A DNA stretch of 64,000 nt. Origin: Phoronis australis. Its lineage: Eukaryota; Animalia; Phoronida. The notes below the pieces were generated by a model. It was not told the origin of the DNA. It saw nothing but the letters and a program-made list of their open reading frames with translations, and ran no database searches. This document shows positions 1,188 through 46,300 of this stretch, in pieces. The stretch covers positions 2,592,802 to 2,656,801 of the forward strand of contig NMRA01000002.1 in assembly GCA_002633005.1 (NCBI GenBank), given 5' to 3'. Every line of letters starts with the position of its first letter. Position 1 is the stretch's first letter. Position numbers and translations under genes: made by a program.

Positions 1188-1331
1188 TCACTGTGGCAAT
1201 TTGAACTTCACCGAGTTTCGTGCTTCTGGCAATGCTTGTAGCCTCGCATTCAGCATAATTTCTGACATTTCATCATTCATCATCTGGCCTGCCACTTCTC
1301 GTTCAATTATCGTGGAATTACGTCGAGTTGC
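1188..1331 (-). CDS. Terminal exon of cassette/gene 1 (ATRRNSTIIEREVAGQ...KLPQ*)
   Basis: Acceptor gtgctttacag|GCA is phase 0, matching the donor at 2237. 47 codons then TGA; AATAAA at 1150-1145. Start resembles terminal exons AAEQSGTRVGRMIIDQ (30655) and AAKGNKTKLGQLILDR (21771). Confidence 0.7.
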   Translation of the reverse strand, partial: ATRRNSTIIEREVAGQMMNDEMSEIMLNARLQALPEARNSVKFKLPQ

Positions 1332-1370
1332 CTGTAAAGCACATTGACAACGATTTGTTTAAAATTCCAT

Positions 1371-1643
1371 TTCACCCTGGTCAGCTGGCTAAAACGGGTA
1401 TAAAATTAGGCTATTTACTCTCACAAAGTCGACCACACAATCAGTCCTCTCCGAGATTGAGTTCCGTTTGCGTATTTTAATGGGAACGAGGAACACCACC
1501 GACTCCCAAAAACGCTTTCTAAATCGAAAATGGTAAATTGACAACGGTAATACAATCCTTTTATGGTAAGGAATCTCGGGAGACCTATTTTATGAGAGTG
1601 AAAAGCCTAATTTGAGGTCGTTTTATCTAGCTAAGCAGGGCAA
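1371..1643. mobile_element. MITE-like element with long imperfect terminal inverted repeats, intronic
   Basis: Left ccctggtcagctggctaaaacg...aaattaggctatttactctcacaaa pairs with the reverse complement of the right end (ccctgcttagctagataaaacg...aaattaggcttttcactctcataaa). Confidence 0.6.
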
Positions 1644-2236
1644 ATTGCAGGCTTCATTCCGAGTTGACTCCGAGCAGACCAATTAAAAATTTTACAACTT
1701 CATGGCTCCGACCGTGGTATTGAGATTTCGTATATGTACAGTATATTGTATACCCGACCGATTTCTGAACACAGGATATTTGTCCGTCTGCACGACGTGA
1801 TTCTGGGACAACTATCCCAGAAGCCTTCGTTCACACATGACTAGTTGAAGATTTCCGTGTTAAATGGAAGAAAATGTTAGAAATATTTTTTTATTCATGC
1901 AGGTAGAAAAGACATCAGCTGCCTCCAAAAATGTCTCTGTACAAAGGAAATGAACAGAAAACCACGTGCCTTTGGCGATTTAGCCAGCTGTGAGGCGCAG
2001 TTTTCCGAAAGGTTTCTGTTACATCGGAATAAACGGGACGTGGAGCATTGCCTCAGACAGTGAAGGTGTTCATATTCCCATATGTGAACAAGCATCTTGG
2101 TAGGACGGGTCTACACCAAAGCAGTAACTCTGCGCCTTTGGTCATGATAGATTTAGCTTTACATTACGATAAAACAAATTTTAGGCAAAGCTATGCGAGT
2201 AACCTCATGATGAGGTGACCATATGCATGTGCTTAC

Positions 2237-5200
2237 CTGATAGAGAACATTCTGAATGATATTGGTAATGACGTGTTCCAGCTTCTCATAGGCTTCCCCT
2301 ACATGCTGACAGCTGCTGCACACTTCTTGAATAAGCGACAACGTTACCATTGGCATAACACCATTAAACACTTCCTGCATAAGTTCTCCGGCCTGCTGAA
2401 TCAACATTAATACTGAAGAAGCGTTATCCTTGCAAGGGTATGCGGCGTGGCCTATCTGGCATCTTACCAGTGGAGGAACGAGTCTTCCACAAATGTCTTC
2501 TTCGAGACCCCGGCAAAAGTTGACGACAAACTGGTACCCATAACTGATGAGCTTGTGCATATTAGAGATGACGTCTACAGAGTCTACGTCGTGATGTACG
2601 TCGCGTTTTGACTTGTGCTGATGAGTTTCTGCGTCAGCATCTTCACTGACACAAATGCCTTCTTCATTTTCGTTATTGCAATGTCTTTCCATCTGAAAAA
2701 CATGTCTGAGGTGAGCGCAATCTTCCGTCACGTTGTCTATATCATCCGTAGCCTGTCGGTCAATGCTAAAATGGTAAGGGCAAAACTCTTGGGTGTCACT
2801 TTTACCGAGGAATTCATCAGACATGCTCATCATAATGGAACAAAGTGGAATGGTAAATTTGGTATCCTCTTCTTCTGCTCGACGTTTTTCTCTGTGGTGA
2901 TGGTGAGTGTGTCTTGAGCTAACTTGATTTTGCTGAACGTAACCTTCTTCGTGCGCTGCATGTACGCGTGAATGGGGAATTTGGTGCAGTCCTTCTTGCA
3001 ACTGCGTTATCTTTTGTTCCCTGTTTTCGTCCATTCTACTCAAATGGGATCCTTCTCCTTCCTCTATACATCCAAATTTCTTCATGTCGTTTTCTAAGTT
3101 GCTTCTAATAGTTCTCTTACTGAGATTTGAATCCTCATTTGTACCAAACTGAACACGAGAGTCATTTAACACGTTAGAAGGTATCTCCGTTCTATGCGGT
3201 ACGAGAAAGGGAGACCTATTTGAAATGCTACCACGCATTTCGGACATGTTAAAATTCCCGCCACTGTCCTGGTCATTTTCCTTAAAAACATCAAATATAG
3301 AAACGAATTGAGATTTGCCTGGACTGATGTCGTTCCCAATTCCTTCTGTTTTAGTCTTCATAGAAGATGATACCATTAAATTGGGGTTCGCATGGGGCTG
3401 TGTTTCTTTTGCACGGGGCATACTTGATCCCAAATGAGAGCTTCGGTTGCTTGCATACATATCCACAGATGTTTGACCTGTTTTGTTACTCTCATTTTCC
3501 CTATTCACAGTTGAAAATTTGTCCATTGATTTAGCTTTAACTGGCACGTTGAAGACTGTATACGGTAATCTATTTGATATACTTCCGCGGATTCCAGTAA
3601 TACCTTCGTATTTTAGCGGAAACTGTTTCTCTACAATGCCATTATCTTGTCTTATGGGTGCGCTAACAAACCCAGGCTGTAAACAAGAATCGTTCATTGG
3701 AGTTCGATTAGAAATACTGCCCCGAACCTCAAACATTTCAGAAGCTTTGTTGGGGAAGGTATCTCTTTTGTCCGCGTTTCCAATACGGTTCACACGGACA
3801 CCAATCCCAAAAGGCCTGTCGGCGCCTAACGAACTATTCCCTCGCACATGAGACATGTCGTCCGTGGTAGTAATCAAACCTGTTTTGTTAGATTTTGTGT
3901 AGTTCGCGTCACTCGTTGTGGAATGAGTGCGAGGATTTCTCAGGTTTGAAAACCCCATAAGGTCCTTGAATTTTGAAACTGCGTTTATCAGACTTCGGTT
4001 TCTTTCCATTCCCTCCATTTTGGTTTTAGTTTGAGTTCCTCGTACTGGGTGAGACTTATCGAAACGTATGACGTTCTCAACGGGAATAGTTTCTGTGAAA
4101 TTCATTTGTGGCGACATGCTGGCATCTGCTTGATTACAATAAATGTGGCTATTAGTTTGGATAGCGCTGGATGTAGTTTGCCGAAGGGTTGGATTCGCGT
4201 TTTGGTTAAATGGCATGAAATAGCTATGATTGTCACCAGTTTCACTACGCCAACTACTACAAGAGGACACTTTGTTTTCATATGAGTCACACGACAGAGC
4301 ATTTCCTCTAGTTGGTTCTGGAGAGGCGTTGTTGTTTTTGCCTCCCTTCTTCTTCTTGCCAGATGCTCCCTTTGCAGGAGGTGATTTCTTACCAGGTGAC
4401 TTTTTACCACCTTTGCCACTTCCTTTGCCACCCCCTTTGCCACTTCCTTTGCCTTTTCCTTTGCCATTCTTTTTCCCGCCTTTAGGAGACGCTTTGCCAC
4501 CTTTACTGGCTTTACCGCCTTCTCCACCTTTACCACTGGCCTTCTCTTTGTCGTCTTTAGCAGGCACGTCTGGATTGACGTTACCGTGTTCTGGAGTTTT
4601 TGGTCTAAATGAGGCTGAATACGAAGGATCTGGAGAGTAAAATCCGGGTGGTTTTGGTATGAACGGTTCAAGTTTTACACGGTCAGAGTATGTGCCTTGT
4701 ATTCCAACCCTGGACAGTGCTTGAGCGAGTACTCCAGATGAGTCAAGAGTGCTAGCAGCTTCATCCATAGCGTCTTGTTGCACAAACGGAAATCTGTTGC
4801 CAATACTGTGGCGGGGCTGGGACCGAGATTGTGGACTAGGGAGGTCATTGAATTTTTGTAAAACGCCCAGCGCTTTTTTGACACTTGATGACTGGAACGG
4901 TTGGTAGTCGTACTTATATATGGGCAATCTTTCGAACAGTTTGTCTTCCGGAGGACCAGACCGCTCTATGTCGAAGTGTTCGTGAACTTTCGGGTGACTA
5001 ATCAAGGCCGAGTGGTCTGGTTGTTGATCCGTGGGTACGTGTTTATGCTGAGGAACGGGTGTAAACTTGTCTTGAACATGAACATGCAGGTTGTCGTAAG
5101 GACCCGGTGGTCTTGTGATAGGGTGCTGCACATTCTGGTTTCCACCTTCGTTAAAATACTGCTGCTGAGATATGATTGGCCGCGGTATACTAAACGGACT

Positions 5201-5503
5201 CATATTTGGTGTTTCCGAACCTAGCCGACGCAAAGCCGACATCGGCTGTTGCTCCTGTCGTTGCTGTTGCTGCTGCTGCAGCTGTTGGTGTTGCTGTTGC
5301 TGCTGCTGCAGCTGTTGGTGTTGCTGGTTCAGCTGTTGATGTTGCTGCCACTGCTGCGTGTTCATTGTTACTGGAAATCCATATTCAGGAAGTTTTCGAC
5401 CAGTGTGCAGAGACTCCGGAAACGAGATCGTTTTCAGCTCCGAGTGCGGTGAATTTGCGGGAACCTGCATATCCGCCGGAGGCGTCACATTCAAAAAGAA
5501 TCT
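2237..5503 (-). CDS. Large exon (1089 codons) of cassette/gene 1: polyQ, SIGNR/SISNR motifs, Gly/Lys tract ending KNNNASP, Cys-containing C-terminal domain
   Basis: ORF 2159..5515; acceptor gtgttttttcag|AGA at 5503 (phase 0); donor CAG|GTAAGC at 2237 (phase 0); homology to the other cassettes. Confidence 0.85.
5246..5357 (-). repeat. Coding CAG/CAA repeat (polyglutamine with H/L interruptions)
   Basis: Plus strand tgctgctgc/tgttgctg runs; translation QQWQQHQQLNQQHQQLQQQQQQHQQLQQQQQQRQEQQ. Confidence 0.9.
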
Positions 5504-6274
5504 CTGAAAAAACACGTCTATTGTGTATTAATTCAATAAATACCAGAACAAGTGCCTCAAGAGCTACGGGAAGATAAAATTTTGTAGGAAAAAAACAATA
5601 AAGCTCGTCTGAAAATTTCCAATCCCTAAGCTTATATGATGCCTAAAAGAATAAACAGTTAAGGAAGAAAAAGGGTGTGGCTAAGGTATACACAGTGACA
5701 GGACAAGACTGGCAGGAGATTGTGCAAATTTCTTCTTCATCAAACTTTCAATTTTACTGTGTTCTGTTGAAATTTAGATTATGTTTCGTAGGTTAACTTT
5801 TCAGAATTTAGAAATGCACTACAGTTAGATAAATTACGTGATGGTGAAATCATAAACGAAGGAAATTTTTCAAGTAACGCTCAACTTGGCTAAATGTCAA
5901 CAACATGAATCCTCAGTTTATCTTACAATTCTGAAGTGATATTTCCATCTATACCAGTACCTTTTCAAGTGAGCAAGATTGCACCTACTTGTGGGTCTAC
6001 AACTTTGTTGATAAATACCCATTTTAGAAATTTTAGACCACCAGTATTCTTAGAGCTTTATTTCTCACATTCCGCGAACGTCTCAGAAAATGCCACTCAC
6101 TGTGTGCGCTCTGATGGCCGGATATTATTTTGAGCTAAATTGACGTCCGCATTACTATTTTCTTTACTGAATTGGGTTGATCCTTTTAACATTGAATTTT
6201 AATGTAAATAAATTCAAATAACAACGTTACTCCGCTGTTAGAATTTAGATATTCATCAACTATACTGTACCTAC

Positions 6275-7168
6275 TTGCGTTGGAGAGGTGCGGTTGAACT
6301 GATTCCAGTGCGAACGCACCAAATGGGGATCTGGTCCAAACCTCTCTGTGAACGACGTTTCCATGTCAGCTCCGGAAATGAAGAATTGTGGACGAGACTT
6401 TTGGAACACTTGACTAATGCAAAATTTTGAGATGCTGTCGTCTATTTGTGGAAATCGGTTCGTTAGACTGTTTTTTCGCTTAGAGTAGTCAACGTCTTCT
6501 CGCTGGTTGAACGTCTTCATTTCATAAAGAACCCTCTTGACACCGGGAAGCATTGCTGGCTCGGATGCCTGCTTGTCAAGCGGTTCATGAGCAAGTGTCG
6601 CTGGAGTTTCAACAGGGCTCCCCCACGTGCGTTTTTCCTCAGATAGTGCTTGTGGCAGGCGTCTTTCGAAATTCGACAGTTTCATTTCTTCAAAGCCATC
6701 GTATGGGTCTTGGTGAACATATTTTTTCTTCCATTCGCAGACAGGCTGCGATTTAACCACATTTGGTGTTTCCACAATCCCTTGCTTAGTTTGCGCGTCT
6801 CTTTTTGGCTCCACGTATGACCAAGCCTTCTGTGTATTATGCTGCAAAAAGTCCGCGTCATAAATAAGATTTTCTTTCGTGTGACGCCCGCGTTCTGGCT
6901 GTGGTGGTGACCATGGCACTTGTATTGTTCCATTGCCGTCTTTCCATGCAACACGATTAAATCCAGGCGGTTTCTTTTCCCGCGCGGGTGGCGATGGGGG
7001 AGCATTTTCAAACGGTCTACTCAGACTCTGCGGGTTGTGAAGTCTATGTAAACTGTTCTCGATGGTAGTTATTTGTTCGTCTTGAAGATACTTTTTTATC
7101 CATTTTGGTCTATTTGAGGCTTCTGGTGACGTTCTGCCGGGAGATTCATGTTGCCCTCTCGGAATCAT
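6275..7168 (-). CDS. Upstream exon (298 codons) of cassette/gene 1
   Basis: ORF 6260..7213; acceptor gttgctcacag|ATG; donor CAA|GTAGGT is phase 0 and fits the acceptor at 5503. Carries a family-motif variant VKRVLYEM...NSLTNRFPQIDD...METSFTER. Confidence 0.75.
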
Positions 7169-10465: not shown

Positions 10466-10525
10466 CTCCTGTTTTGAAATTACATATCTTTTGTATTCAG
10501 TCCCAGGACGGCCTGGTGATGGCAT
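10466..10525 (-). CDS. Candidate short first coding exon (MPSPGRPGTEYKRYVISKQE) for cassette/gene 1
   Basis: ATG at 10525, 20 open codons, donor GAG|GTATGC in phase 0 compatible with the acceptor at 7168. No other support. Confidence 0.3.
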
Positions 10526-14994: not shown

Positions 14995-16364
14995 CTGTAG
15001 GGAAAGGTAAAGCTGTTCATGCTATTGCTGAGAAGGTAGGAGTAAAAGTTTACTGTGAAAGATGAGGTACGCCTTCAGGATGCCCGGTTACCAAAATTAA
15101 TGTTTGTTGTTTGCTTTTGAAAAGCCACAAAAACAACTTTTGATCTACACTATTTATCTTCATGAAGTTGGTCGCAAATTGTTCCTTAGTTAATTGGGAG
15201 ACTTTCAAGCAGCAACGTGTTGACTGGTCATGTTTGAACGGATAGTACTGACCTCTAGAGGATGAGGAGAAGGCAAGTTAAGTTCGTTTTTGTTGAAAAC
15301 GCATCACGTCTAATTACATGAACATACACTGTGAATGACCTTTTCACAACCCCAGCATTGCGTGGCACACTGTGCTCCTTGACAATAACAGTGCCATGAA
15401 ATGGACTGCAACACGTGTAAAACCATCAAAAACATTCCCCTTTTTTTCTAGTTGCATTTCCTTCCTGCATAGCGCTTAATTATGCAATCTGACAACGTAC
15501 ATCTATCAAACCGGAATACACAATTTATTGGCATGATAGCATCGGTTTCAATTCAACAAGCCTGGACAATTTTATGACTTGCTGAGGCGGTGTGCCTTTT
15601 TGAGTTACAATCCATTTTTTGTAAGAGCACATTACATGAAAATGCAAAACTAATACTATTTATTTCTCACTTTGCGTTCCAGAAGTTAACAACGTTACAG
15701 TATTGTCACTTAATGAAAATGAACAAAAGGCACACTGCATTATTGCGTGCGATGAAGTTCCATATACAACACCCAGCTTCACACAGCGTTTACGAGATGG
15801 GAGTTACCCTTGACTTTCATCAATTGTAATATTATATCTCATGTCGCAGTTAATGCAAAATTGTTCAACAGTGTCCGTTGCAATTCTGAGATTATTCATT
15901 GAATTCTTAATGGTACAGTCGTCGAGTTGTAGGATCCAACAGTTTTCATGGCACATAGCATCTTGAACCATGTGACTATTCTTGATGATATCTACAAATG
16001 AAAATGAATGCTATGTCATTGATGTATTACTTCGTCAGAAACTCAATCACGTAATATGCACCTCTATTACTATAACAACCACGGAATAACCAAAATATTT
16101 AACTCTGTCAATAAAGAATGGTCGTTCAAGATTGAAGTTCAGATTGTTGTGCTCAACTAAGTATTCTGAACCAACACGTACAATGCAATGATCATAACGT
16201 GTGCGTGTACAATGGCTTGATATAAAATGACTGAAACATGAATGACTACTCACCATGAATCACTCCACGACTTGCGAATGGAGCAACATAAGATTCCTGT
16301 GACCATTTCTCCTTATCACCCAGCATTCCAGTTTGAAAAAAGTTTCTCGCTTTCTGGTATGTGA

Positions 16365-16967
16365 TTATTCTGAGATACGTGAGATTCCGCATCGCTGGTT
16401 TCTGGCCTTTTTTGTTTCCGCTACCTCTCCCACCAGATCCCTTCCCTTTTTTTCCTGAACCTTTTCCACCGGAACCTTTTCCCTTTTTTCCTCCTTTAGT
16501 CCCCTTCTTTTCCTTTCCCGTTTCTTTGCTCGAGCTAAGGGATGCCGAGTAGTCTGACTTTGGCCGCTCTCTCGTTCGTCACCAGCATTAACAACACTGC
16601 TCCCAATGATCGGATCCCAGTCAAAAAACACGTCTCCGCGGACAATTTTCTTTGTACCGAAATATATAGGCATAGGTGTTGAATGTATGTAGATCACAGA
16701 TGAATATGGCTCATTCAAGTACTCCCAAGGCGCTAATCTTTGACTTGCTTTGTTCACGATGCATTGGTGAGAAGGTTGGGGTCGAAGACTTTCTCCGGTT
16801 CGTGCTCTCGAGTAATGAGGAATATTCAACTCATAATTGCTCTTAGGGAAGGGGCGAGGTGCCGACATTTTTCTCAGATGACTGGAATTTCTGTTGGGAG
16901 AGGTATAATACTTTACAGGCTGGCATTTCAGCTCGTCTTGGTATCTACACGTTGGCTTTGTGCTGAA
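16365..16967 (-). pseudogene. Mini-cassette 4: diverged copy whose Gly/Lys tract lies out of frame (frameshifted gene or pseudogene)
   Basis: ORF frame keeps FDWDPIIGS (cf. YAWEPIMGS) and KKARNQ, but KGGKKGKGSGGKGSGKKGKGSGGRGSG is encoded in an alternative frame. Possible phase-0 acceptor catcttag|TTC at 16967. Confidence 0.55.
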
Positions 16968-18251: not shown

Positions 18252-19549
18252 TCACAAGTTTTTGCATTGCTTCAGCTCAATGACAGTCCTGTTAAAAAGT
18301 TCAGTAACTACTCGCGATAATATTTGGTACACCTCTCTTTCATTGGCGGCGCCCTCGGTCACTTTGTCAACCAAATCAGGCGACATTCTGCTCATAAGTT
18401 TTTGGGTTGACTTCTTCAATAGATCTATTGAAGGGCCACACGAGACACATTTACAACGTCCTCTTCTGGCGCAGCCACAGATGGACGATCCATTCCTATC
18501 CACTAGCTCATCAGTAGCTCGTTGGCGCATCGATGCTATCAGACCATACGCAAAACGTAACTTGCTCTTCGTGGTTAGTCTGGCCTCCAGTGGCGGGGCC
18601 ACTGTTTTCATTGACTGTTCTTCTGGTAACACTGGCCTCTCGTAAGGTATACAGTAACGTTCTACACAGGAATGACAACTAAGTGGCAGAGTAGTGAACT
18701 CTGACAACTTGCGATAATTGCATAAGTAGTCTTCACTACCACTAGCACTCTCAAATTCTTGTTTTCGAAAATGGTGGACAAACCGAGCAAGCGGCGAGAT
18801 ACCGTGAGCATAGAATCGATCATGCTCTGATTGCTGATTCACTGGCAAGCAATTCATTTTCCTCACATGTGTCATGCTACATTGGTCTAAATAGTTTGTG
18901 TACTCAGAAAATTCAGATTTGCATAAGTTTTGATCGTGCGCTAGTATTGAATCCTTTCTTGTCTTTATGTCTTTTGTTAAATGCTTTAAATGTCTGAAGA
19001 TTCTAGTTTTCACCCGGTCTTTTAAAGCATTCAGAGACTTGTCATCGCGTGGTTTTGAACAAGTATTTCCTTCTTCTCCGCTGGCTGATTTGTAATTGCC
19101 TTTTGGACCCTTTGATTTTGAGTGAAGCTGTTCTGGAGAGCAATGTTCAATAGAACTGTTGATTCCAGAAATTTCCCAAGCGGGTCTTTGGTCAGGAATC
19201 TCGTAGTATCTTGACAGAATTTTCGGAGAGAGTTTGGACGTATCAGTATCTTCATTTTTATGAACATTTGGCGTATTACTAGCCACATTGTAAGACTGTG
19301 CGCACGGCATTCTTCTTTTCCTTGCCCGAACTTCAGCATCACGTTCAGTTAATGGCTGAGCGTGTTTTCCTGATTTCACAAAAGTAGTTCTCGCAAGTGG
19401 ATTCAATACAAAACGTCGAAGTGCTTCAGTATTCATTTGAAGGCGATCCAAACTTTCACGGATAAATATAGCGCTATCTGTCTTGCATTTTGTCGCAGGT
19501 GTTGTACTTGACAACAGACTTTGAACCTTACGCGAGTTTTCCACAATCC
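18252..19549 (-). CDS. Second (terminal) exon of cassette/gene 5
   Basis: ORF 18252..19595; acceptor aatttatag|GG (phase 1). Starts GIVENSRKVQSLL...LQMNTEALRRF, homologous to the exons at 24805 and 32908; ends with the shared Cys domain. Confidence 0.8.
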
Positions 19550-19697
19550 CTATAAATTTATAAAAAATCGGAGTTACTTGAATTGCTTGGTCCATAAGTT
19601 TTCACCACAACTTTTTTGAAGGCAACAATTCAAATTTGAATGAATCAATATATGCCATAATTTTATTAACAACATGTGTTATGATGTTGATACTGAC

Positions 19698-20931
19698 CTT
19701 TGATCAATTTTTCCAACGGGGAACTGGCGAAATAGTTCGGTGCTTGTCCTCTGACATTTTCCTTGGGGTGTTTTTGTCTACTATCTGTTATTTGTTCTCG
19801 CAACAGTTGCCGGTAGCCCTGGGCCGTAAGTGACGTCCTATTACCATATGGGTAAACAGTATAGCGTGCGCCCGAAGTGGCATTTGGTTTTTCCTGTAAA
19901 TGCTGCATTTCATAACGCAAATCACTTCCTTTTTGCTTCATGGTTTTGAAATGAGTCAAAAGGTCATTGAACACTGAAGTCATAGACCAGGAGTCACTAC
20001 TGCTGTAGGCACTTCCGTTTGCACACTGAAAACAGTGCCAAGCGTCGATCACTGCATTCGATCTATCTGGCTCTCCACTGGGCGAGGACCGAAAACGTTT
20101 GTTGTCACCATTGGTGTTATTCTTCAATGGTACCTCATCGTGCGTGTATGGGTACGAGTCGTTTGCAAAGACAGGCCCACTTGGACAGCTGAACAAACTG
20201 CCACACAATGAATGGCCAGCTTTACCAGTCCTGGCACTCTGGTTTCTTGATCGCGCCTTCTTGCCAGCCCTCTTACCAGACCCCTTGCCTTTGGCTCCAG
20301 ATTTTTTGCCTGATCCACCACCCCTACCTTTTCCTACTTTTCCACCTTTGCCACCTTTTCCACCTTTACCTCGTTTACCGCGTCCTCGGCCTTTACCAGT
20401 GGAAGACCCTGAGGCAGCTCCCGAGGCTACTTTTGAACTTGGTTTTGGCTTTGGATCACCAGGTCCACGAGATGCCAATATCGTTTTCGAGTGCAGTTCC
20501 TTGAGTTGCTCGCCATAGTAGTGTTTTTCAGAATACGAGCCCTGCATACCCATCGTCTCTCTGCCTGCCATCCCCGAGGCGAGAGTGGCCTGACCGAGGT
20601 ACGCCTCTGAGGTATAGTCGTCTACGATGGGAAATCTGTTGGAAATGCTGCTTCGAGGCCGCATGATGTCGACTTCTGTCCACGGCCGCTGGTAGTGGTG
20701 AAGCGCGCGTACCGCCCTGTTCACGGTCCTGTTCCAAATTTGTGGAGTTTCTTGTGGTTGTACGTCGTGCATTGGTTGGAATAACTTGTCGTCTGGCAAA
20801 GGATTCGTTTCAATATTTGGCCCATAATGGGTGTAGGAGGGCATTATTTGCTGATTGTTGGGTGGTGCGACCGAGTGATACAGGTGATCCTTCCCAAACT
20901 TAAAGTGCACATTGGAGCGTGACCGTCCAAC
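19698..20931 (-). CDS. First large exon of cassette/gene 5: PDDKLF, RSSISNRFP, Gly/Lys tract, RNQSART
   Basis: ORF 19666..20910; acceptor attaactcag|GTT (phase 0); donor AAAG|GTCAGT (phase 1); 148-nt intron to 19549. Confidence 0.85.
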
Positions 20932-28490: not shown

Positions 28491-28700
28491 CTGGGTACCA
28501 TTCCAAGAAAACTGACTTAGCTACGACAAATTTTAAAATTCAGCTAATTTTGAGATGAAATTTATTCAAGAAAGAGGTCTTAAGTTTGACATAAGATTCG
28601 TCTTAATTTTGATTAACTTACTAGATGTGAAAGTTTCAGAGTTTAGAAGTCGAGACGAATCTTAAGCGTCAAAATCAATTTAAGTCATTTTCTTGGTCTT
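28491..28700. mobile_element. Diverged copy of the 10684-10930 MITE
   Basis: ttccaagaaaactgacttagctacgac ... tttaagtcattttcttgg matches both ends of that element. Confidence 0.6.
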
Positions 28701-30049
28701 AACTTACGATTTTTAGTTTAAAAGAACAGACAGTTTCTTATTTCTCGAGAATATGCTCGACGTGTAAAATGAACCGCCGTGCCCAACGAATTGCAAAGTC
28801 TGGTTTCAAGCAATAACGAACTGTGATTTCTTTTTCTAAGCCCTGAAAACGCCTCTAATTTGACTAAGGACAATGCGAGACCTATTTCGTGGTCAAGTCA
28901 AGCCTAGGTTCTGATAACGGAAGATGAGTTCATAGCCGCATATAGTAAGCGAGATATAAGTATATGGAACAAAAATGAGAAATACAGAGGTGCTGGAGAA
29001 TTTACATGATGTAAGGTTGCTCAAGCACAGGCGAGGGGTATTTTTTCTCCTTCTGGTCGCCGTTAGTTTCACCCCCGCAAGCGATGCTGCGCTACCCGAT
29101 TTTTCCTTTTTTGCCCCAATGACTCCCGACTAATACGTCTTTGCAAGTTAGTGTGCAATGCTGCAGGTATGAAAGATTTTAGCCATAGTGAAAAAGTGGA
29201 AAAACACACTTACCGTCTAATTTGTTGGACTGTGCAAGACCTAAGGAACTGAAGCGAATGTGACGTCATCTGGGTGATATACGTTTGTGATGTAACTGTC
29301 TGAATGAATGGTGAAACAGTGGTCCTTGGTCTTTGAATGTTGCAGTGAAGAAAACAACACGTGCACAAAATCAAAACCTAACCAAATGCAAACTACCCAA
29401 AAGCCTGGAGACTAAATTCTGAGTGGTTCATTTTACAAATTCACCCATATGCAATACGCGTCACTCCACACATCACACAAGTATCACACGCACACGGGCG
29501 CAAGCTCAGTTTCACAGGATTCTGTAAAGAATTGTAAGGTAGACAAGTGTGTAGTGACTAGCATTAATGAAATGATCTTTAATTAGGCCCAAACATTTGG
29601 CATCTTTTTATACACGATTGTGAACGCGATTGCGTAGACCCTGAGGAACAGGCGAAACGACATTAGATGCCCACTGGCCCTTCTTAGGTGTAAAGATTGG
29701 GACTGATTTTTATTTGTGGACAGGTCTACCTGGAATCCCGGCCAAATGATCATGAAAGAAAAACAACTAAACCTAGATCTAGCTAGTATATTTGTATAAA
29801 AGCAGTATATGATACCAAACCAAAAAGAAAGTCACGATACTTAAAAATAAGCTGTGAAATCTATGTAAAAGAATGTCATTGTCCAGACCATACAGCGATG
29901 CGTAACGTGTATAACGCTGAAACAAGATGTAAAGATAACGAATAAAAAGGTGTCTTTAAGACATGTTGAGGTGTAAATTAAATACATTGGTTATATGCAA
30001 CTGCTTTAAAATGCAAATATGTTAGCACGTTTTTCTTACATCACCTATG

Positions 30050-30655: not shown

Positions 30656-30899
30656 CTGAAATGTATGATTTCGTTACCCAAAGCGCAACTGAAACTATGA
30701 ACATATAGGAGAAATGATCAGGGAAAACAACCTGCTATCATCTGCTGCAGATGAACGGTATTAACAACAAATGGCGGACGTTGACGTCGTTGTGAAACCT
30801 TTGAGCAATATTTAGAATTAAGTATGAAATACATTTGTACAGAGGTTCATACGTAGCGACCAATTCATATTCCATGACAACGTGCCAATATAAACGTAC

Positions 30900-32908: not shown

Positions 32909-33416
32909 CTAAAATGATGGTATAACAACTTAACACTTTAAACAGGAGGAGCCCAAAAGCTTGAAACTTTAACTCCTACGTATTGTCGAGTTTATATAAA
33001 ATAGTTGACAAAATAAACTGAGATGCCGGTATCGAAATTTGACATAAATTTGACGCACAAATCTGCCACTAAATGTTACCATCTATTTTTTACCAGAACA
33101 CTTTTCAACTCTAGCAAATTCTTGACAAAATAACTACAGGTGTAGTTCCTCGCCCTCTGTCGAAGTCGCAACTACTAGCCTTGCAAATTCTTTTACAAAA
33201 TATATACAGTTAGGCGTCACATTATAATCTAAGGCTCCACAAAATGTCATTTAATTGCGAAATACTTTAAATAAATTGCCAAATAATTTAGTTCGTCCTA
33301 CGTTTGGCAGATTTCTGTCAAAGGCTGTCCAAAATACTGTACTGTTGTTGCATTTGTAGGGGGTTTCTCTGACAAAATTTGAGTAAAACTAAGCAAGCTA
33401 TATACATGTGGCTTAC

Positions 33417-36400: not shown

Positions 36401-39400
36401 CGGACTTGATCTGTTTGAAACATAGAAAACACCCCTGCACCTAAACGTTTTCTGGCCGGAGCCTGGCGGTATTCTGCATCAGCACTAGTCAACTTCGTTT
36501 GCTGCTGTTGAAATGTTATCTTCTGCGCCCTTCGCTGCTGCAGAAACTCCTCCCCCGTCGTCGGCCTGTCTTCGCCCTTAAATATGCGGGCTGCACTGTT
36601 TTCAAAACGCTTGCCAGGTGAGCTAGAAGGCTGAGCATTGATGGCCGCGGCAGGTGCCCTTATTGAATCTTGTAGTATAGTTGGCCTCATGATTCCGACC
36701 TCCTGATGCGTTCTTCTAATCATTGAATGACCGCCTACTTCCGGAATCAGGGCAGCAGATTGTTGATGACCTTGTTGCTCGTTTCTTAAGAATTCAGAAT
36801 CATGTTGTTGGTATAATGTTCGCAATATTTGATGTCCTTTCGTATCATCAGATGTTAGAGCTGACGTAGCGTTGGCAGTTTGATGGTCAGCTGCGAATGC
36901 TTTACCTCCAGTTACCTGCGGAGCCATAATGTCAGCTTGCATATGCTGTTGTTGCATTCGGTTCAGTTGTACTTCTTTAAATTCGTTCGGACTTGATAGA
37001 CTGAACCTTTTAATAGTTTTATCAATAGTTTTCTCGGCTTTCTTGCGAAGTTTGGGAAGGTAATCGTCGGTCACATCTTGTTTGAAAATGGCAAACGAAT
37101 TTGTTTGAAGTCGCTTTGCTGGCTCTGCCCGGTCGGCATGAGTGTCTGGTCCTTTTTCGTCTTGTTTATTTAGCATGTTAGTCTTCTGTACTTCCATATA
37201 TCGCCTACCGTTATCTGATCCTGTAAAGAGCGTTGTGTTTTGTGCCTCTTCAGCTACAGTTGCGGCGTCATCGTCAAATTTCTTAAAAGCTTGATCAAAG
37301 TGGCCTGAACCGGCTTTGATGGGTTCCGAAGTAGGTTGAACAATCGGTGCTTTAGAAATTAGCTCGGACAGTTGCTTTTTCTGTGACGTCTCTAGTGCAT
37401 CAACAACTTCCGTACGCAAGAATGCTCTTCCCCCAAGGATTTTACGCTTAGTATCGGCGTCAAACGGCACGCCTTCGTTAGATTTGGACAGATCCCTAGG
37501 AATTGCATAGCCTGGATTATGCCTGCCACCGATACTCAAAAGTCTGCCGGAATTGACATGGTAATCACCAGGGTAATAAGCTGGTTCACCCGGTACTTTT
37601 TCCTCCAACATTAGAGCTCGGCCTACTAAGAACTTCTTTTTCTCAATTTGTTCGCTCTCGCTGGTGGCTGCATATGTGCCATCCATTATTGCAGCTAATC
37701 CAGGTCGTGACCTAGCACAGATACTCATCAGTCTCTGCTTGGTTGGGGACTCTAATCTTTGTTTAGATTCCAATTCTGCGATTTTAGAGAGCTGTGCTTT
37801 TCTGTTCAATTCTCCTTGTTGCCCTGTAAACTTTGTCTGAGCGCGACCCAGAATGTCTTTCTTGGGATCGCTTCCGCTAAACGGTTTAACAATAAAGCTC
37901 TGCGGGAGTTCTGTAGCCGGTTTTATACTAGACGGATCTCCATAATATTCAGGCATTACCATTGGTGACGGAAGCTTTCTTTCAGCAGAGATAAACCAAG
38001 GGTTCGGCGGTTGCTCATTTCGACCTACCGAATCATTGCCATTGTATATTTTCCGACTTGGAACCTTCGATAGATCAGCAGTTCGTATACCTATTGCAGT
38101 ATGGGGTCGCGTATCCGATGCGTCATTAACTGTTCCAGCGAACCGCTTCTCAACTTGTCTTATGGGTTTGAGTGTTCCAATTGCCTTCAGTGCTGGTTTA
38201 GGTTCTTGCTTGGCTGATTTTGATCCATCAAATATTGCAAAACGATTATTGTTTAGAGCTGGAGAATGTTTAACCGTCAACGCTTCTATTTGCTGCTTTG
38301 GACTTGCGCGTTCCTGTCTCTGGAACATTTTCCAGCGATCCTGGATAAGCGGAGAGTTTTGAACAATTGACGCATCAGGCACTGGTCGCCGTCGGTCTTT
38401 TTCAGGTTCACGTGCAGTAATGCCTGCCGTGGTGGTGGGCATTTTCCGAAGGACCCCTTGAAACTCTGTTGGTGGATGATCAATTGATGCTATTCTAGTT
38501 TGTGTTTTCAATCGAGAATTAGGCGACAGGTAACCAGGTAATGGCACCATCGCAGACGCGCCACTCCAGTAGTCTTGAGGGGAAGGTCGCACTACTTGCG
38601 GAAAATCGGTAGTTGGTTGTATGGTGTGTGTTATTTGTTGTTGTCGTTGTTGGTTTTCAATGTAAGTGTGGTAGTCACCCATGTTTGGCACATTTCTCTG
38701 AAATTGCTCAGAAGCAGGCACCGGGTAGGCACCCCAGTTGAGTGTGTCGTCATATGCTCGAGAGATATGTGACGCCCATTGCTGATTGATAGGTGGCGGA
38801 GGTCCTATGTACACCTGCGGCTTTGATTTTATCCCAGAAGCATCTGAGGTTGGCAGCACCATAGGTTGTTGACCTGCAATGGGGGCTCCGAATGCAAAAT
38901 AGGCAGGCATACGTGCAGCGGATGCTTCTGTATACCTTGTTGTCTCTCCTGGAAATTGTTCCCTTGCTGATGTAAGCCTACCATTAGTATCCTGCCACAT
39001 ACTGGACGTTTGTCGGTCACTGGCTCTGCCCGATCTGATGGCAGACAGTTTTCCTATTGGTGTCTGTAATTCAGAGACTTTTGGAATTATATCTACAAGC
39101 TTTTTCCTCGAATCCACGGCAACGGTTACAAACAACGACCTTCCTGACATCTCTTTTTTCTTTTGAGTAAGTTCCATTAACTCTTCATCAGAAGTTTTAG
39201 GTTCGTCGCCTGGCTCTGCGTAACCAGGCTGTCTCCTACCGCTTATACTAAAGTGCCTTGTAGATTTCCCTTTGTAGTCAGTATCTTTGTGTCCCGGATC
39301 ACAAACCGGATCGACGTTCTCCATCGCTGCTCTCCCACCTAAAGCTTTTTTTCTTTCCACACTGTCGTACAAATCGATAATGTTTCCTAATGATACGTCA

Positions 39401-40029
39401 TTGATGAATGAGACCCCGGGCTGATTCCTGCCGCTGATGCTCATCAATCTCTCAGCTCGTTCCCTTATATCTCCCCTATTCTGTTTGTTGACTGGGATTG
39501 GTTGACCAGCCGGGCGTGGTGGTGTTAACTCTTTTGATTGTCGGGGCGTTGCCTCTTTTTTCTCGCCGTCATCTTTTTGTATACTTACTTCAAAGTCCAC
39601 GCCACCTTTGCCTTTCGTTTTATCTGGCTCTGTGTTCGTAATTTCGACATTGGCCAAATCTCGAAATTTCGTGAGTGGGGGAGATTCCATGATAAGCTGG
39701 GCAAGAGCAATAGGTTCAATTTCCCCCGTACCTTCGTGTGTTTCGTCCTCCATGTCGTTTAGTTTGTAAATATCGATGTAACAATCTGGCTTAGATTCAC
39801 CATCACGCAAAGCATGCACGTCGCTATTAAACGCTTGAGTTAGCGGTGCCATTTGCTCGACAGGCAGCGCCACGACATAACTTTTGGTAATAATGCAGGA
39901 ACCCTGGGTGCCATCAGAGCGAATGGTGGTTACATAACTTCCCGCCAAATTCGATTTGTCCGACAGAGACATGTGCAAGGTACTTCGAGATCCATGCGAG
40001 AATTGAAGAAAACTTCCACAGTGTGATTG
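33417..40029 (-). CDS. Giant exon (~6.6 kb, ~2200 codons): five RLxSISGRxxPG-type motifs, KKSPPGG repeats, Gly/Lys tract, KNQSARD
   Basis: ORF 33298..39978 is open back to a TAG at 40032-40030 (weak phase-0 acceptor acacgtag|CAA; first ATG at 39972). Donor CAAG|GTAAGC (phase 1) after SVHCLVQ. 5' boundary uncertain. Confidence 0.8.
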
Positions 40030-40928
40030 CTACGTGTCTTAAGTGCGCGAGCTCATTATGCAGGGTTAACAATGCTGCTCTCTCTCTTTCTAAAATATGT
40101 ATGTTTCCAAGTCTTGGAAAGGGAACGAGTTACAAACCTTGAACACATTCCGGTGACCTTGAAACATGATCATCTGACTCAAACATACAAGTGTTGCCTA
40201 AAGTTGGTTTCATTTAAGACAAGAGACTGGTTTGATACGAGATCTGTCGAATGTTGGTCGATATTACATTTTTAAACGTCGAGCATTTACTAGCAAAATG
40301 GCATAAATGGGATTAGAGTCGCATGAACGCTTGATCAAGCTGATGTAGTTGAGGAACTTTTTTGCGCTCAATTTCCGCGAAGTTAATGCTTAAGTGAACA
40401 CAGCGTGCGACGGCAAAGTGTATTTAATGTTAGCGTTTCTCACTCAGCGCGAGAACAACCAAACACGGCATAGAACGCCATCTGATGCCGCAATATGTCG
40501 TTATCGCTAGTACAGCGTATTAATTGAAGTGCCCTTCCTAAAAACAGTAAATGGTCTGTTCTTTCTGTTGAGCAATAGCTGAAGCACAGTTAGTTTATTT
40601 AGTTTCCAATAGATGGCGCTCGCCTACAGTACATACATTGTCTGTTACGTCCTCAATTAAGGTCAAGTTAATTTGGAACTTAAAAGCTCTACTCTAAATG
40701 CTGATTTTGCATACACAAAATCACTTATTGCAACACTTTCTATCACAACAACGTCCTTTCTATTTCATGACTGCCCGTCTGTCTGATTTGATATCGACTG
40801 ACCTTATGGTTTTGTGAGGCTATTCTTCCCGTGCACCGGCAATCTACGATCAACTCTGGAATCGTTATCGGTTACTCGCGTTTTGCATAAGTGATCCGAG
40901 TTTGTGGTATACGATTCATATTATTAAG

Positions 40929-41878
40929 CATAGGCGGATTTAGGGGGGGCCCGCCCCCCCCCCCCCTTGGCTGCCGCAAAAACAATGAAACAGTAAGAGC
41001 GTAGGGAAATGGTGAGTNGGGGGGGGGTGGAGCTCAAACCCAATTTCAAGTGTCAAATTCGGAACACGGCGCATTCGTAACGGAACTACACGTATGGCTA
41101 AGTATAGGCTCTCCCGCGATATCCCAGGCGACCGGCAGTGGCGCTGCGCACTACGACTCCGTTTTCGTCGTTTGCTCCACTTTGCAATGAAGAAAATTTA
41201 CTTCATTTTTTAAAGAGAATGGAACCTGAGTGACGATGAAAAAACAGAAGCTGCTGGTAAGATGTGAATTTTAATCGAAGCCTTATTGAATCACTCAGAA
41301 ACTCGCAATACTCTCTTTGTCAAACCTTTTTTTAGGACGATTTCCAAAGCAATCCCGTCATTATTGCCAACACGAAAAACGGATTTGGTCTTTTGGGCAT
41401 TTGAAGACTATTTTAAGTACGACAAATTTGTTAAGAATTGGTGGCACAAAATATAAAACGTATAGCATTACGAAAAGAAGTAGGTTTCGCGCGCAAACGC
41501 TGTGGACCATAAACAAGTAGGTCTTTTAGTATGTGGTAAGTAGTTAAATCGTGTTGGTGTAGTAGTAACGCACGCGCCCTCTAGGCGACAGGTCGTAAGT
41601 TCGAGTCTTTGGTACGTTCATTTTTTTCTGTTTGACACGATCTCCGTGTTTTTTTGTTTTTTTTTTCTCCTTTTTTTCTTGGATAATACTTCAGGAATCA
41701 AGGAAAATGCTTGATTTTTAGAGGTAAAAACAGAAAAATTTCCTGAACGGGCAAACCCCCCTCCCGACCTCCCCCCATTCGGTGCTATGCGCATCTACAA
41801 TTATGGTTCACTTTGCGCAAATGCTTACAGCCGGACAAAATGGTGGGCCCCCTTTGTGATATCCTAGATCCGCCACTG
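40929..41878. mobile_element. Non-autonomous TIR element with 5-bp target-site duplication
   Basis: ttaag|cataggcggatttagg ... tcctagatccgccactg|ttaag. Contains an N at 41018. Confidence 0.75.
41549..41627 (+). other. tRNA-derived (SINE-head-like) segment with Pol III A and B boxes
   Basis: A-box-like TGGTGTAGTAG at 41555, B-box GTTCGAGTC at 41599, T run at 41621. Stems are too degenerate for a functional tRNA. Confidence 0.5.
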
Positions 41879-43352
41879 TTAAGGGAGGAAGGAATGATTT
41901 AATATTAAGTACGTTTCCTCGCGAGCGAATGACGGTAAAGTATATATATATATGTGCGACTCAAAGCACTTGATTTGTATTCTGACAAAAGATTTGCTGT
42001 TCAGTTATAAATTTAGGGCTTTTCACGCGGGTCTCTTTTGCGTATTTTTCCGTTATATTCTCCGCAAAATTTCCCCAGAATTTTTACTCAAGAGAGCAAA
42101 ATTTTCACTTCATACGGTAAGTTATCATTCTAGCCTTGACAACGAAGCAAAGATAATTTAAAACTATCCTTTCTACCGACCTACCCATCTCAGACGACTG
42201 GGGGTAGGGCGAGGGGAAACAAACTATATTTAATGATACGGATTGATGGAAGTTCATCAGCAATATTTGCTCCAAAGCTTTTTTTAGTGTTTCTGACGTT
42301 TTATTGAGTAAACCAATCTTTTTGAAAACGATACCACTTAAATTTAACTTACATACCTACAGACGCTAGTAGTCTTCAAACTATACAACTCCACTGTCTT
42401 GTGTTGGCTCCTTCATTCACTTTCTCGTGTTTCACACATGCGCACACCCAGCCTAAAAATGGTGGGGCTCGAATTTTTGAGAATGTGAACCTTTTACTAA
42501 AAAATCGGGGTACTTTCAGAGCTGTGAATTGTGCATTCGCCAAATTTTGGTAGTTCCTGCCTTTTTAGTGGACTTTTGTCTCCTTTTCTTGGAGTTTTCG
42601 TTTCTCTGAGGCGGACCTTTTTGCCAACTTCTCCCCCGCGAGTGAGCGCATGGTCATAGTGTCTGTTGGGTGGCATTAGCTTCCCACTGCATTCACACAA
42701 TGTTGTCAAGTCTACACATCCTCGTCGGTGGTTGCGATACAGTAATAACACAGTGGTTGAAAGCTATATCAAGGCACGTGACTGCTAATCTTTATTCGAG
42801 CCAAGTGTCAGGAAGTACGATTGGTCAGTTTCGAAGAAGGTCTTGAGTAAAGTTTGTGGCGACGGGTCCTGCACTAAGCAACACCTTTCCCCAACTAGTA
42901 GTAACATTAAGGGAACATTTGTCTCACAAAATCAAGTATGTGCAAAGTATCTAATAACACACTCATAAGGCTTCAACATGATATAGTTCACTTCAGCTAT
43001 GTCTGGTACAAATATACTAAAACAAAGCTTTGTCCACGGAACCAGGTAGACCAGTGCGTTCCATACAAGGGCCAACTACCACGTACCAGGTAAGGTAATC
43101 CCATTATTTAATGTAGATGCAAAAACACCAACACTAAAAATCCTTTATACTATTGAGTGCAAGTGACGTAAACTTCTAATCTTAAAAACCCAACACCCTT
43201 CGGCCTCAATAATTGTTTTCAACCAATATCGACTAAAGTTTGAAAATGATGCTGTTAAGCAAATGCTAATGCCACATACAACTCCCATGCACTCTACATA
43301 CGGCAGTCGCAATCATATCACCATAACCAGCCTCTCTTATAACGACACTTAC

Positions 43353-46300
43353 ATATTCGCCGGGTGCCGTGGGTGTGGAAAACTGCGGGCTTTGGCGTGG
43401 TTCCCCACGAATTCCGCTTTTACTGACAGATTGGCTGGGAAACATTACGCCTTTACTCGGTGACGTATCTAAAAATCCTCTACTGGCGGATGTGCCTGGT
43501 GCTATACGATAGCCACGTGTCCGTTTGTGGCTTGGATTGATTGTGTTTATTCCGCCAATCACACCGCCGCTGTCATTGTAACCGCGAAATGATGCTTTTG
43601 CTGAGGTACCTTGTTCGTCACGACCTGAACTGTACTGGTCCTTGCGTAGGGGCTCGTATCTGGCATTACCGTGACCACGTGACCCTGGTTCTGGTACAAT
43701 ATGATTTCTCCATACCCAGAAAGGCTCATTTGGTACTCTCTCTTCGTTTCTCGGAACAATTTCACCTGACGAGTGAGACTGAAATATACCTCGAATATGC
43801 TGTGCGGCTGGTGTCGCCATTCGATATGTTTCCACGTCTCGAATTCGCTCCGGTAGCGGATTGTTGAATATTTCGTTCTGAACGTCTGGCGGTATTTTGC
43901 TTCTCGACCGTAACAGTTGCAGGTATTGTTCTTTTTCGTCCAGGTCAGGAGGTAAGATGCCCTGAGTGAACGGACTATTAGAGGCAGCCCGTGTGTTAAG
44001 CAGCATTCCTATGTCAAACTCTCTTTGGAACATCCACGGGTTTGGATAGTATGGTCTGTCTGCTGTCATCTCTACCTGACCACCGCGAAGATCCGGACTG
44101 AGGCTGGAAGCGATCATATCGAACGGTGTAAGACCCCAGGATTCTCCGTGTGGCAGTCTATCAGAGGCCACAGTTTTATATTTAGCGGGCACCGGTCTAG
44201 GCTCATACTCTTTTTCATGACCCTTCTTCACATGTTTCAACTCAGTGCGAAGATGCACAAGGTCAGGTTTTTCACCGGCAACCTCCTTCATTCTGTGATG
44301 TTTCCGTTTCTCTACTTGCTCCAAGATAGCAAGGTGTTCGTTAAAGTTTTCAATTGATTCGCCGGGATCGCCACCAACGACATTTTGTGGAATGGCTTTT
44401 ATGTCGATGTGACCTGCCTCCAGTCCTGACTTGGCTGTTTTCTTTTCTTTTGATGGCGAGGCGCCAATCGCCTTGAATGTTTTGCTCGAAGAACTCTTGA
44501 GTGACGATTTAAGTGAAGTTTGGCTTGATTTTAGGCCTGCTGTAGTTGCAGATGTTTCGCCTGTTGCCTTAGTTCCACTTGCGGATGACTTCATCTTTGA
44601 GTCTGATCCCTTTGAACCTTCGGATGTCTTTGAGCCAGCAGAAGTGGTTGACTTTGCCTTTTTTAGTGACGTTGCTGATTTTGACGTTTTAGGAGATGTG
44701 TGTCCTCTGCTTGTCTTACTGTCCTTATTGCCTTTTTCTTTCTTTTTCATTACTGCTGAGCTAGATTTCTTTCCACCAAAGCAAGAAAAACCACCACCTT
44801 TTTTCTTCTGCTTCTTCCCACTCTTCTTACTCCCTGACTCACTTGGCTTGACATCAGGTTTACTTTTGTCCGTTTTGCTCTTGGACTTTTTTACACTCGT
44901 CCCACTCTTGGATTTCTTTGCCGATTTGCCAGATGACTTTTTACCCTTTGAAGATTTCTTCGAAGCAGACGTGTTGACATTACGCTTTCCTCTTTCCGAA
45001 GCTGATTTGTTTGTGTTTCCTCCCCTAATTTTGGGTTTGTTAGGGCTCATTAAGTTGTCGTAGTAAACTCCTTCTTCCTCATATAGTTGCTGCACTATTT
45101 GCTTGTGCCTGTGCTCCATTCTAGCCTCAATCTTTTTGACAATGTCATCTCCTGAAGGTTTGCAGGGTGCTGACATAAAAGACGTTCCCGGGAGGGACCG
45201 ATTCGAACTTTGACTACTTTGCACTTGATTAATTGGTCGATCTCTTGATTTGTTAATGTTCGGGCTAACAGTCGATTTATGTTTGCCTCTTGAGCTCGAT
45301 TTGTTGAGCTTTGGACTCTTGGTCGATTTTTGGCTGCCTTTCGAACTGGATTTGCTGACAGTGGAACTTGTGGTCGATTTCTGACTATTTTTAGACTTCG
45401 ATTTACTGGCTTTGGGACCACTGGTTGATTTCTGGCGGTCTTTAGACTTGGATTTTTTGTTTTTGGGACTCTTTGCTGAATTGTTAAGAGAAAGTCTTGT
45501 CACAAGCGAACATGAATTATAGTGCTCGGATATGATAGTTTTTGATGTAACCCGTCTGCAATAGCTTGAACGGGCATTACACGCTGTTCGCCTTAATTTG
45601 GCACTAGTCTCAGGAAGCTCTGTCTCTTGACAGTTAGCTGATTGATTAAAATTTACGGCATCTTTTTGACCCACACGTGACTCCAGTACATACCGTGTTT
45701 TCTGTGATTTCGCTGGTGACTGTGCTTTAGCCGGGGGAGTTTGTGTTAGTTTCGTCAACAAACCGTCGACAACATTCCTTAAACAATGGACTTTTTCAAG
45801 TTCTTTTTGGGTTTTTAACGGAATAGGAATTGGCAGATTTCGTGGAAATGTAGCTGGTTCAGTTTCGTACATTTCTGTACTCTTAGGGAAAAATTTTCTT
45901 TTTGCACACTCCACCACGTCTTTTAAAGAATCGCAAATTGTAGGCCCTCCTAGTGACGCTTTCAGAATAGCGGATTCACGGCAACGCGGTTTTTCTTTTC
46001 CAGATTCGGCTAGCAGGTCAGGTAATTCGCGTCTGAGCATGTCACGCGACATGCGTAAAGGTCCTGTTGGCTGATGATAAATTTCAGAACTAATAGGCGT
46101 AACCGCATGAGCACTATCGTAAGCTTTTAACAGTGAAGGTGTAGGTGAACCATCCGCAATATCACCGGAGAATCGCTGAGTTATAGACCCTCGTGACCCT
46201 CGGCCTCTATTTAGGGCTTTTGACTCTTCCTTTTCTTTTTCAATGGCTTTTCTTTCTTCTTTTAACTTAACCAAGGCAGCTTTGTCGGCCATATACTCGT

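Follow-up and report, generated by a model that had tools for sequence, protein, structure and literature searches.

Layout of the locus and its common exon chain

The stretch of DNA considered here (the window) comprises 64,000 nucleotides of the phoronid Phoronis australis (assembly GCA_002633005.1, contig NMRA01000002.1, positions 2,592,802 to 2,656,801), and the positions given below are counted from its first letter. Its minus strand carries a chain of common exons ending at a splice donor at 43353, followed by a short proximal terminal exon (T0) and an array of units, denoted here U1 to U7 (Table 1). The donor is joined to T0 and, 28-30 kb away, to U5 and very likely U6, and most transcripts of U1 and U2 are independent of it. 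The locus does constitute a 3' cassette system, on a smaller scale than that first proposed in a sequence-only reading of the same DNA, according to which one receptor could swap among about seven tails or, alternatively, the units would be a tandem family of paralogs.

The window is intron-rich, with a G+C content of about 42%, and all unit coordinates are on the minus strand. Large open frames are found on that strand between 48758 and 2162 and, when connected through phase-consistent GT/AG sites, yield units of 3,075 codons (U1, from 40029), 1,884 (U2), 843 (U3), 367 (U5), 172 (U6) and 1,434 or 1,136 (U7, from 7168 or 5503, respectively). Transcription was evaluated with three raw-read runs (X1, X2 and X3) and one contig set (X4), picked by species label, and read counts are written X1/X2 (or X1+X2). 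A first mapping covered positions 24001-44000 with X1 to X4 at a likeness of 90 (15 of 28 joints listed), and a second one covered 43301-63300 with X1 and X2 at a likeness of 98 (all 11 joints and 12 of 65 loose ends listed); in spite of the different cut-offs, the depth over E0, the last common exon, was similar in both. The first mapping showed that E0, U1 and U2 are transcribed on the minus strand in X1 and X2. The depth of X3 was zero on all exons in 24001-44000, which points to restricted expression, and the X4 contigs matched only repeats in this interval.

Table 1. Exons and units of the locus, with window positions and the evidence for each
Feature	Positions	Strand	Evidence
Common exon with two hydrophobic helices; phase-2 acceptor, GC donor	62835..63231	-	joint 62835-58531, 21/20 reads; hydropathy; frame
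Common exon, 129 nt, phase 0 to 0	58403..58531	-	joints 62835-58531 (21/20) in and 58403-57751 (21/8) out; frame
Common exon, 136 nt, phase 0 to 1	57616..57751	-	joints 58403-57751 (21/8) in and 57616-48679 (31/13) out; frame
E0, last common exon, 5,327 nt, Lys/Ser-rich	43353..48679	-	depth 27-67 in X1/X2; self-blastp
T0, proximal alternative last exon, 6-residue tail, AATAAA at 42796	42780..42894 (3' end approximate)	-	joint 43353-42894
U1: A1 (to 33417), B1 32908-30900, C1 30655 to stop at 30050; about 3,000 residues	29854..40029	-	joints, 3' pile-ups, depth, hydropathy
U2 5' untranslated exon, short	29214..29274 (5' end approximate)	-	joint to 27552, 16/8 reads
U2: A2 27552-24948, B2 24805-21948, C2 21771-21580; about 1,860 residues	21437..27552	-	A2-B2 joint; B2-C2 from sequence
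U3: A3 20931-19698, B3 19549-18252, 843 residues; candidate upstream donor 21101	18252..20931	-	sequence, homology
U4: A4 16967-16254, frameshifted, and short B4	15804..16967	-	stop at codon 201; Lys/Gly block in other frame
U5, distal alternative tail: A5 14994-14247, B5 13942-13587, 367 residues	13587..14994	-	best consensus match; internal intron from sequence
U6, distal alternative tail, very likely: single exon, 172 residues	12756..13274	-	second-best consensus match
Candidate ATG exon, in frame with the 7168 exon	10466..10525	-	sequence
U7: exon 7168-6275 (phase-0 donor), A7 5503-2237, C7 1331-1188, AATAAA at 1150	1188..7168	-	sequence

The four exons extending from 63231 to 43353 are spliced serially in two of the three raw-read runs, and the resulting frame stays open over 1,996 codons, reaching the GT donor at 43353 in phase 0. 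This confirmed the previous notion that upstream exons connect this donor to the exon encoding two hydrophobic helices. The intron 58532-62834 is of the GC-AG class and was used by 21 and 20 reads. At 63231, a uniform loose end (16/17 reads, agreement 0.98-1.0) has no match inside the window, and the frame continues through it, indicating that the gene begins further upstream, beyond the window. The flux along the chain is flat (counts of 33, 41, 29, 44 and 34; chi-square p 0.38), and no loose end was found at 58403 or 57616 among the 12 of 65 listed. On these grounds 58403, formerly considered a second common donor, was discarded in this role at any major level.

E0 contains an internal duplication (43746-44480 versus 46953-47681, 44% identical by self-blastp) that comprises a Lys/Ser-rich block and a domain of about 247 residues for which no Pfam match was obtained. 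Within this exon, eight X2 molecules start at a single point, 43478, the nearest AATAAA being about 70 nt upstream, and this pile-up is possibly an early 3' end. The 8.9-kb intron preceding E0 contains plus-strand spliced reads with GT-AG joints at 49650-50239 (3/4 reads) and 50731-52499 (8/1 reads), which could represent a long non-coding RNA or reads of a repeat copy located elsewhere. It also contains a minus-strand joint at 54386-54885 (5/4 reads), unconnected to the coding chain among the joints listed.

Acceptors joined to the donor at 43353

The nine acceptor positions initially highlighted do follow AG and open in phase 0, and 43353 is a phase-0 GT donor. However, the presence of a phase-0 AG near the start of an open frame is weak evidence when taken alone, since 92% of random 40-codon stretches carry one, and the acceptors by themselves were dropped as an argument. 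The joint 43353-42894 was directly counted (8+2 reads). A short terminal exon had been anticipated here at 42868-42785; the exon is real, but the RNA places its start at 42894, and 42868 was rejected as the main acceptor. The exon is unrelated to the other units.

In all, 34 reads (25 in X1 and 9 in X2) have loose, clipped ends at 43353 whose sequence is mixed (agreement 0.62). When their consensus was compared with 4,126 minus-strand AG sites, the best match was 14994 (25 of 30 letters in X1 and 27 of 30 in X2), followed by 13274 (22 and 21 of 30), while the sites averaged 7.4 (standard deviation 2.4) and the next best reached 16. Mixtures of acceptors reproducing 29 of the 30 letters at an agreement of 0.57-0.67 (207 in X1 and 12 in X2) included 42894 in every case (207 and 12), 14994 in 205 and 12, 13274 in 205 of 207 and 11 of 12, and 5503 in 198 and 5. 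Dropping 14994 decreased the X2 fit to 21 of 30, and the combination of 42894 (fixed near its counted value), 14994 and 13274 reproduced 28 letters in X1 and 29 in X2. All three are in frame with E0. Acceptor use at 43353 is mixed: the donor joins 42894 and 14994 and, very likely, 13274. The proposal that 43353 feeds mutually exclusive 3' units therefore holds for T0, for U5 and very likely for U6, and not for seven tails. Put in terms of the split-read search suggested at the time, 42894 was recovered by counting and 14994 by clipped consensus, and neither 40029 nor 27552 appeared among the listed joints, nor 58403 among the listed loose ends.

The sequences of U5 and U6 point in the same direction. 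Neither contains a Met before codon 47, their first 59 codons are 47% identical (blastp of A5 against A6 over 59 residues), and their differences are richest at the third codon position (37 versus 23 and 25). The lack of an early Met, together with similarity from codon 1 onwards, fits tails whose translation start comes from an upstream exon. The alternative tails would have the lengths of 6 (T0), 367 (U5) and 172 (U6) residues.

Units of the array and their shared module

The exons of U1 are connected by 59/51 (A1-B1) and 56/61 (B1-C1) reads, and its 3' ends pile up at 29854 and 29881, shortly past the stop. C1 encodes two hydrophobic helices, and U1 is the sole unit with such helices. It had been envisaged that U1, entered at 40029 from 43353, would restore to the receptor its transmembrane helices (TM) 4 and 5, a proposal that the RNA evidence did not support. 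No 43353-40029 or 43353-27552 joint was present among the 15 of 28 listed, in which the weakest raw-read rows have 9 reads, so that these joints would amount to about 9 reads or fewer if the listing is support-ranked. Coverage falls to 9 and 7 at 39847, whereas the plateau reaches about 50-75, and a step at about 39820-39880 agrees with the bin means. The main 5' end of U1 is therefore not at 40029; the depth step and the missing joint led to the rejection of 40029 as the main acceptor of 43353. Finally, the junctions of U1 are crossed by 110 and 117 reads and that of U2 by 65 (X1+X2 totals), compared to 34 through 43353. U1 and U2 exceed 43353 two- to threefold in junction reads and, consequently, cannot be fed mainly from this donor.

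These observations fit a main 5' input of U1 near 39800-39850, where most U1 RNA begins or is spliced in and which is not 43353, and U1 is probably transcribed from its own start. Position 39823 is an AG that has a branch-point-like motif about 20 nt upstream and shares phase 2 with the intron preceding the 63231 exon. The depth step fits this position (implied plateau of 73 and 52 versus 78 and 49 in neighboring bins), from which the frame is open, and no read was seen for entry into it. Splicing into 39823 from an exon beyond the window is possible.

In U2, the A2-B2 joint is supported by 35/30 reads, and a further joint, 29214-27552, by 16/8. The longest overhang of the latter (60/52; p 0.007 and 0.015 under a uniform model) denotes a short exon, with an in-frame stop two codons before the junction. 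This stop excludes a coding role and identifies the exon as a 5' untranslated region, with U2 starting at Met codon 22. U2 is, therefore, likely an independently started gene, whose 5' exon is its own and non-coding. Given the depth at the start of A2, 16/8 joints seem a low number, and a second input to 27552 may exist. The hydropathy profile of U2 revealed no hydrophobic helix. A short, low-depth X1 transcript with molecule pile-ups at both ends occupies 28692-29073 (minus strand), in the first intron of U2.

The notion of separately started paralogs is thus sustained for U2 and probably for U1, and contradicted for U5 by the clipped reads at 43353. Furthermore, cassette and own start had been opposed too sharply: the 3' exons of mod(mdg4) have their own promoters (PMC13490949), so that a unit with its own start may still be a cassette.

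The units share a module made of an A exon, a phase-1 intron and a B exon with N- and C-terminal helical domains, plus a phase-0 C exon in three units. Six A exons contain a Lys/Gly block that terminates in an NQSAR-like motif, and A4 contains it as well, but only after a frameshift. The homology of the units, already perceived in the sequence-only reading, was corroborated by blastp of B1 against B2 (35%, E 7e-20), in addition to the A5-A6 match, and by leave-one-out hidden Markov models, which recovered the C-terminal helical domain in all four cases (B1, B2, B3 and A7) and the N-terminal one in three of five (B4 at E 0.1 only, B5 missed). Blastn detected no DNA-level similarity between units, which suggests that the duplications are not recent. 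The shared C-terminal domain was modeled as helices with a predicted local distance difference test score (pLDDT) of 88, from an alignment of four sequences, and had no Foldseek match. As had also been claimed, every unit ends in its own stop once internal introns are removed, and AATAAA is found less than 600 nt from the stop in the proximal exon, U1-U5 and U7 (U6 has variants only). A single giant protein in which the units would be consecutive exons was dismissed because U1 has a stop and 3' pile-ups and U2 starts with an untranslated exon.

As judged from sequence, U4 is likely a decaying unit. The exons at 7168 and 5503 had been listed as separate cassettes, of which the former probably precedes the latter within U7, given its phase-0 donor at 6275. 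Candidate first exons can be proposed for U3 (at 21101) and U7 (10525-10466). A poly-glutamine tract is located at 5245-5356 (minus strand), near the start of A7. Amphipathic helices are found at 30655-30600, 21771-21720 and 1331-1280 and at the ends of B1, B2, B3 and A7; their spacing reminds us of kinase-anchoring (AKAP) helices, and Pfam gave no such hit.

Interpretation and comparison with known systems

By their motifs, and unconfirmed by any tool, we take the pair of hydrophobic helices in the 62835-63231 exon to resemble TM2-TM3 and that in C1 to resemble TM4-TM5 of the PKD1 family, the TM numbers following the sequence-only reading and these motifs. For the two-helix exon, a HMMER search over 1.84 billion representatives gave 0 hits, as did PDB sequences, NCBIfam and the word search; its structural model is weak (two helices after an extra helix, pLDDT 54), and Foldseek and VIA-align returned only generic helices (best VIA-align Z 7.5). 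The C1 helix pair had no hit in Pfam, PDB sequences, NCBIfam or the word-indexed search. Pfam detected no BTB or zinc-finger domain in 18 + 8 translated stretches, Atlas provided only unnamed clusters of low recognition value, and a metagenome scan yielded nothing useful for protein identity. A channel-like TM6-TM11 domain is also missing, as C1 stops after its second helix and no unit contains a further hydrophobic helix. This domain is absent from several sea urchin REJ members and is not needed for membership, and sea urchin members with 0, 1, 2 or 6 helices are known, SpREJ1 being testis-specific (PMC1934368). Considering that every tool test was blank, the relationship of this gene with polycystin-1 receptors is a lead and not a result.

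The initial observation is partly confirmed, and its interpretation partly supported. The locus is a hybrid: a tandem paralog array in which part of the units act as alternative tails and part are likely separately started genes nested in a long intron. With moderate confidence, we favor a model in which a membrane gene joins 43353 to alternative last exons (42894, U5 and, very likely, U6), most likely by long-range cis-splicing coupled to the choice of poly(A) site, with U1 and U2 likely having their own starts. Cis-splicing is preferred because the units follow one another co-linearly on the same strand and because no element for trans-splicing stood out. The array could have arisen by serial duplication of the A-B-C module, derived from the 3' portion of a polycystin-1-like ancestor, some copies being kept as tails, some acquiring their own promoter and U4 decaying. 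The protein would have its helices followed by about 1,900 basic, mostly low-complexity cytoplasmic residues and then by a tail of 6, 367 or 172 residues, and the loop and two helices that it lacks would come from U1, as a distinct protein, so that the ancestral receptor would have been split in two. It might act as a scaffold that is anchored in the membrane and whose basic Lys/Gly ends can be exchanged, operating in a restricted tissue that is likely the male germ line; the latter suggestion derives from the on/off expression over three runs, the basic low-complexity sequence (isoelectric point of about 9-11.6) and the lack of detectable relatives.

Several facts weigh against this model. 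To reach 14994 in cis, splicing has to skip about five poly(A) sites and no fewer than four active acceptors, and around two thirds of the reads at 43353 go past 42894, which is hard to explain in cis and easy in trans. The distal joints derive from a 30-letter majority consensus, without individual read counts; no mixture of up to five of ten candidate acceptors reached 30 of 30, and 13274 is not strictly needed for the fit, as 29 of 30 is attainable in its absence. The simulated agreement for three acceptors (0.68-0.70) is higher than that observed (0.62), and hence a fourth acceptor is probable. Position 5503 is a candidate that fits the mixture, although it ranks 17 of 2,822 AG sites in X1 and 1,380 of 2,822 in X2, and none of these 2,822 sites was singled out. 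No support for a polycystin came from any search (Pfam, NCBIfam, PDB sequences, word-indexed, HMMER, Atlas, Foldseek and VIA-align). As for scope, 18-19% of each run was read, X1 and X2 are two samples from one study, and the read mapping spans 24001-63300, U3-U7 lying beyond it.

The leading alternative, which we consider doubtful, is trans-splicing as in mod(mdg4), where U5 and U6 would be transcribed from their own promoters and attached to a donor transcript ending shortly past 43353. This would account for the frequent bypass of the active U1 and U2 and of some five poly(A) sites, and a separate start does exist within the array (U2). Against it, the units are co-linear on one strand, and, by the U1 spliceosomal RNA motif (not to be confused with unit U1), the interval 43352-40030 contains no pseudo-donor with at least 10 of 11 pairings, but only four wobble-rich sites with 9 of 11, at 42183-42363, inside a repeat. 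Intron complementarity is at background (8-10 nt versus a mean of 9.5), although mod(mdg4) needs none either, as far as the accessible portions of PMC13490949 and PMC4387717 describe it, and own promoters for the 3' exons are the rule there (PMC13490949, likewise). A more elaborate version, in which a polycystin-1-like receptor is trans-spliced in the mod(mdg4) manner onto the tail array and, in addition, an upstream switch directs an exon beyond the window to 39823, in frame, swapping TM2-TM3 and E0 for a 3,000-residue loop with TM4-TM5, appears unlikely.

We find it quite improbable that the distal splices are short, ordinary ones in a haplotype, or in a near-identical second gene copy, in which the block from E0 to U5 is lacking or re-ordered. 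X1 and X2 have most heterozygous-looking E0 sites in common, and the seven exonic U1/U2 differences among the 40 listed (636 more exist) are all near-fixed, which speaks in its favor. However, at least two mismatches were found in 16% and 18.5% of the exon reads mapping to U1/U2, and in 17-20% over the E0 mapping, when 2-10% was expected from seven fixed differences plus error; this excess suggests that both haplotypes express U1/U2. Moreover, the window has no gap, and the choice between U5 and U6 would still be alternative.

The original proposal in full, that is, one receptor with about seven tails joined at 43353 or 58403 and U1 restoring TM4-TM5, is very unlikely. All acceptors are in frame, a fourth one is likely, and 40029 fits 82 of the 207 X1 mixtures with 1-7 reads, but joints to 40029 and 27552 and a loose end at 58403 are missing among those listed above, the flux counts leave a few reads at most for U1/U2, and U4 is frameshifted. 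Finally, a pure tandem family, each unit with its own start and none joined to upstream exons, would suit U2, probably U1 and the candidate first exons at 21101 and 10466, but it is barely credible in view of the match of the clipped 43353 reads to 14994 in two separate samples; the ends of these reads coincide exactly with a GT donor and an AG acceptor, in frame, which disfavors a template-switch artefact.

Alternative last exons generated by tandem exon duplication are known, where splicing and the use of poly(A) sites select among the duplicated terminal exons; here, the duplicated elements are multi-exon modules of up to 3,000 residues, and the splice jumps over expressed same-strand paralogs. 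In sea urchin SpREJ1-10 and in human PKD1, PKDREJ and PKD1L1-3, the two helix pairs and the cytoplasmic loop between them would, by their motifs, be the counterparts of those described here. In contrast, the loop after the first pair is here about 1,900 residues or more, the second pair lies in a unit mostly unspliced to the first, and no channel domain follows; REJ, GPS and PLAT domains would lie outside the window. The available part of PMC1934368 describes no alternative tails, and no such case was found for polycystins in a literature search conducted largely without subscription papers.

In mod(mdg4) and lola, common 5' exons are joined to one of several 3' units, producing different C-termini (PMC4387717 and PMC13490949, in their accessible text). 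The same is true here of common 5' exons with alternative 3' exons (42894, 14994 and likely 13274) and of the paralogy of variable units (A5-A6 and the Lys/Gly-NQSAR block). However, those genes encode BTB/zinc-finger factors and have 20-31 tails, whereas the present one encodes a membrane protein with two hydrophobic helices and has 3-4 tails in evidence, all on one strand, and some of its paralogous units are likely stand-alone genes within the long intron. With its common-plus-variable layout it works like mod(mdg4) and lola, without belonging to their gene family. Chelicerate sDscam and vertebrate clustered protocadherins combine tandem cassettes with alternative promoters and with cis- and trans-splicing (PMC9258826, in the part available); they also have a tandem cassette array on a membrane protein, although their variable cassettes are 5' and extracellular, whereas here they are 3' and predicted to be cytoplasmic.

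Arrays of 3'-variable cassettes are known mainly from insect BTB genes, and the present one is found on a different kind of protein, in the membrane. A single tandem array mixes tails, units that apparently turned into separate genes and a likely decaying unit, offering a snapshot of exon modules becoming genes, or the reverse, and the splicing over 28-30 kb of expressed same-strand paralogs makes the question of cis versus trans testable. If the polycystin reading were true, a split, tail-switching form would be added to a receptor family tied to sperm signaling.

Regarding repeats, the window includes a 22-bp tandem array (59848-60035), a series of related dispersed repeats (61185-62696), and two intervals (40676-42676 and 52639-53972) where reads on both strands come from repeat copies. 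A further stretch, present in two copies (57948-58294 and 760-1071) that are 68% identical, resembles the end of a protein of retroelements that lack long terminal repeats; Pfam gave no hit for it.

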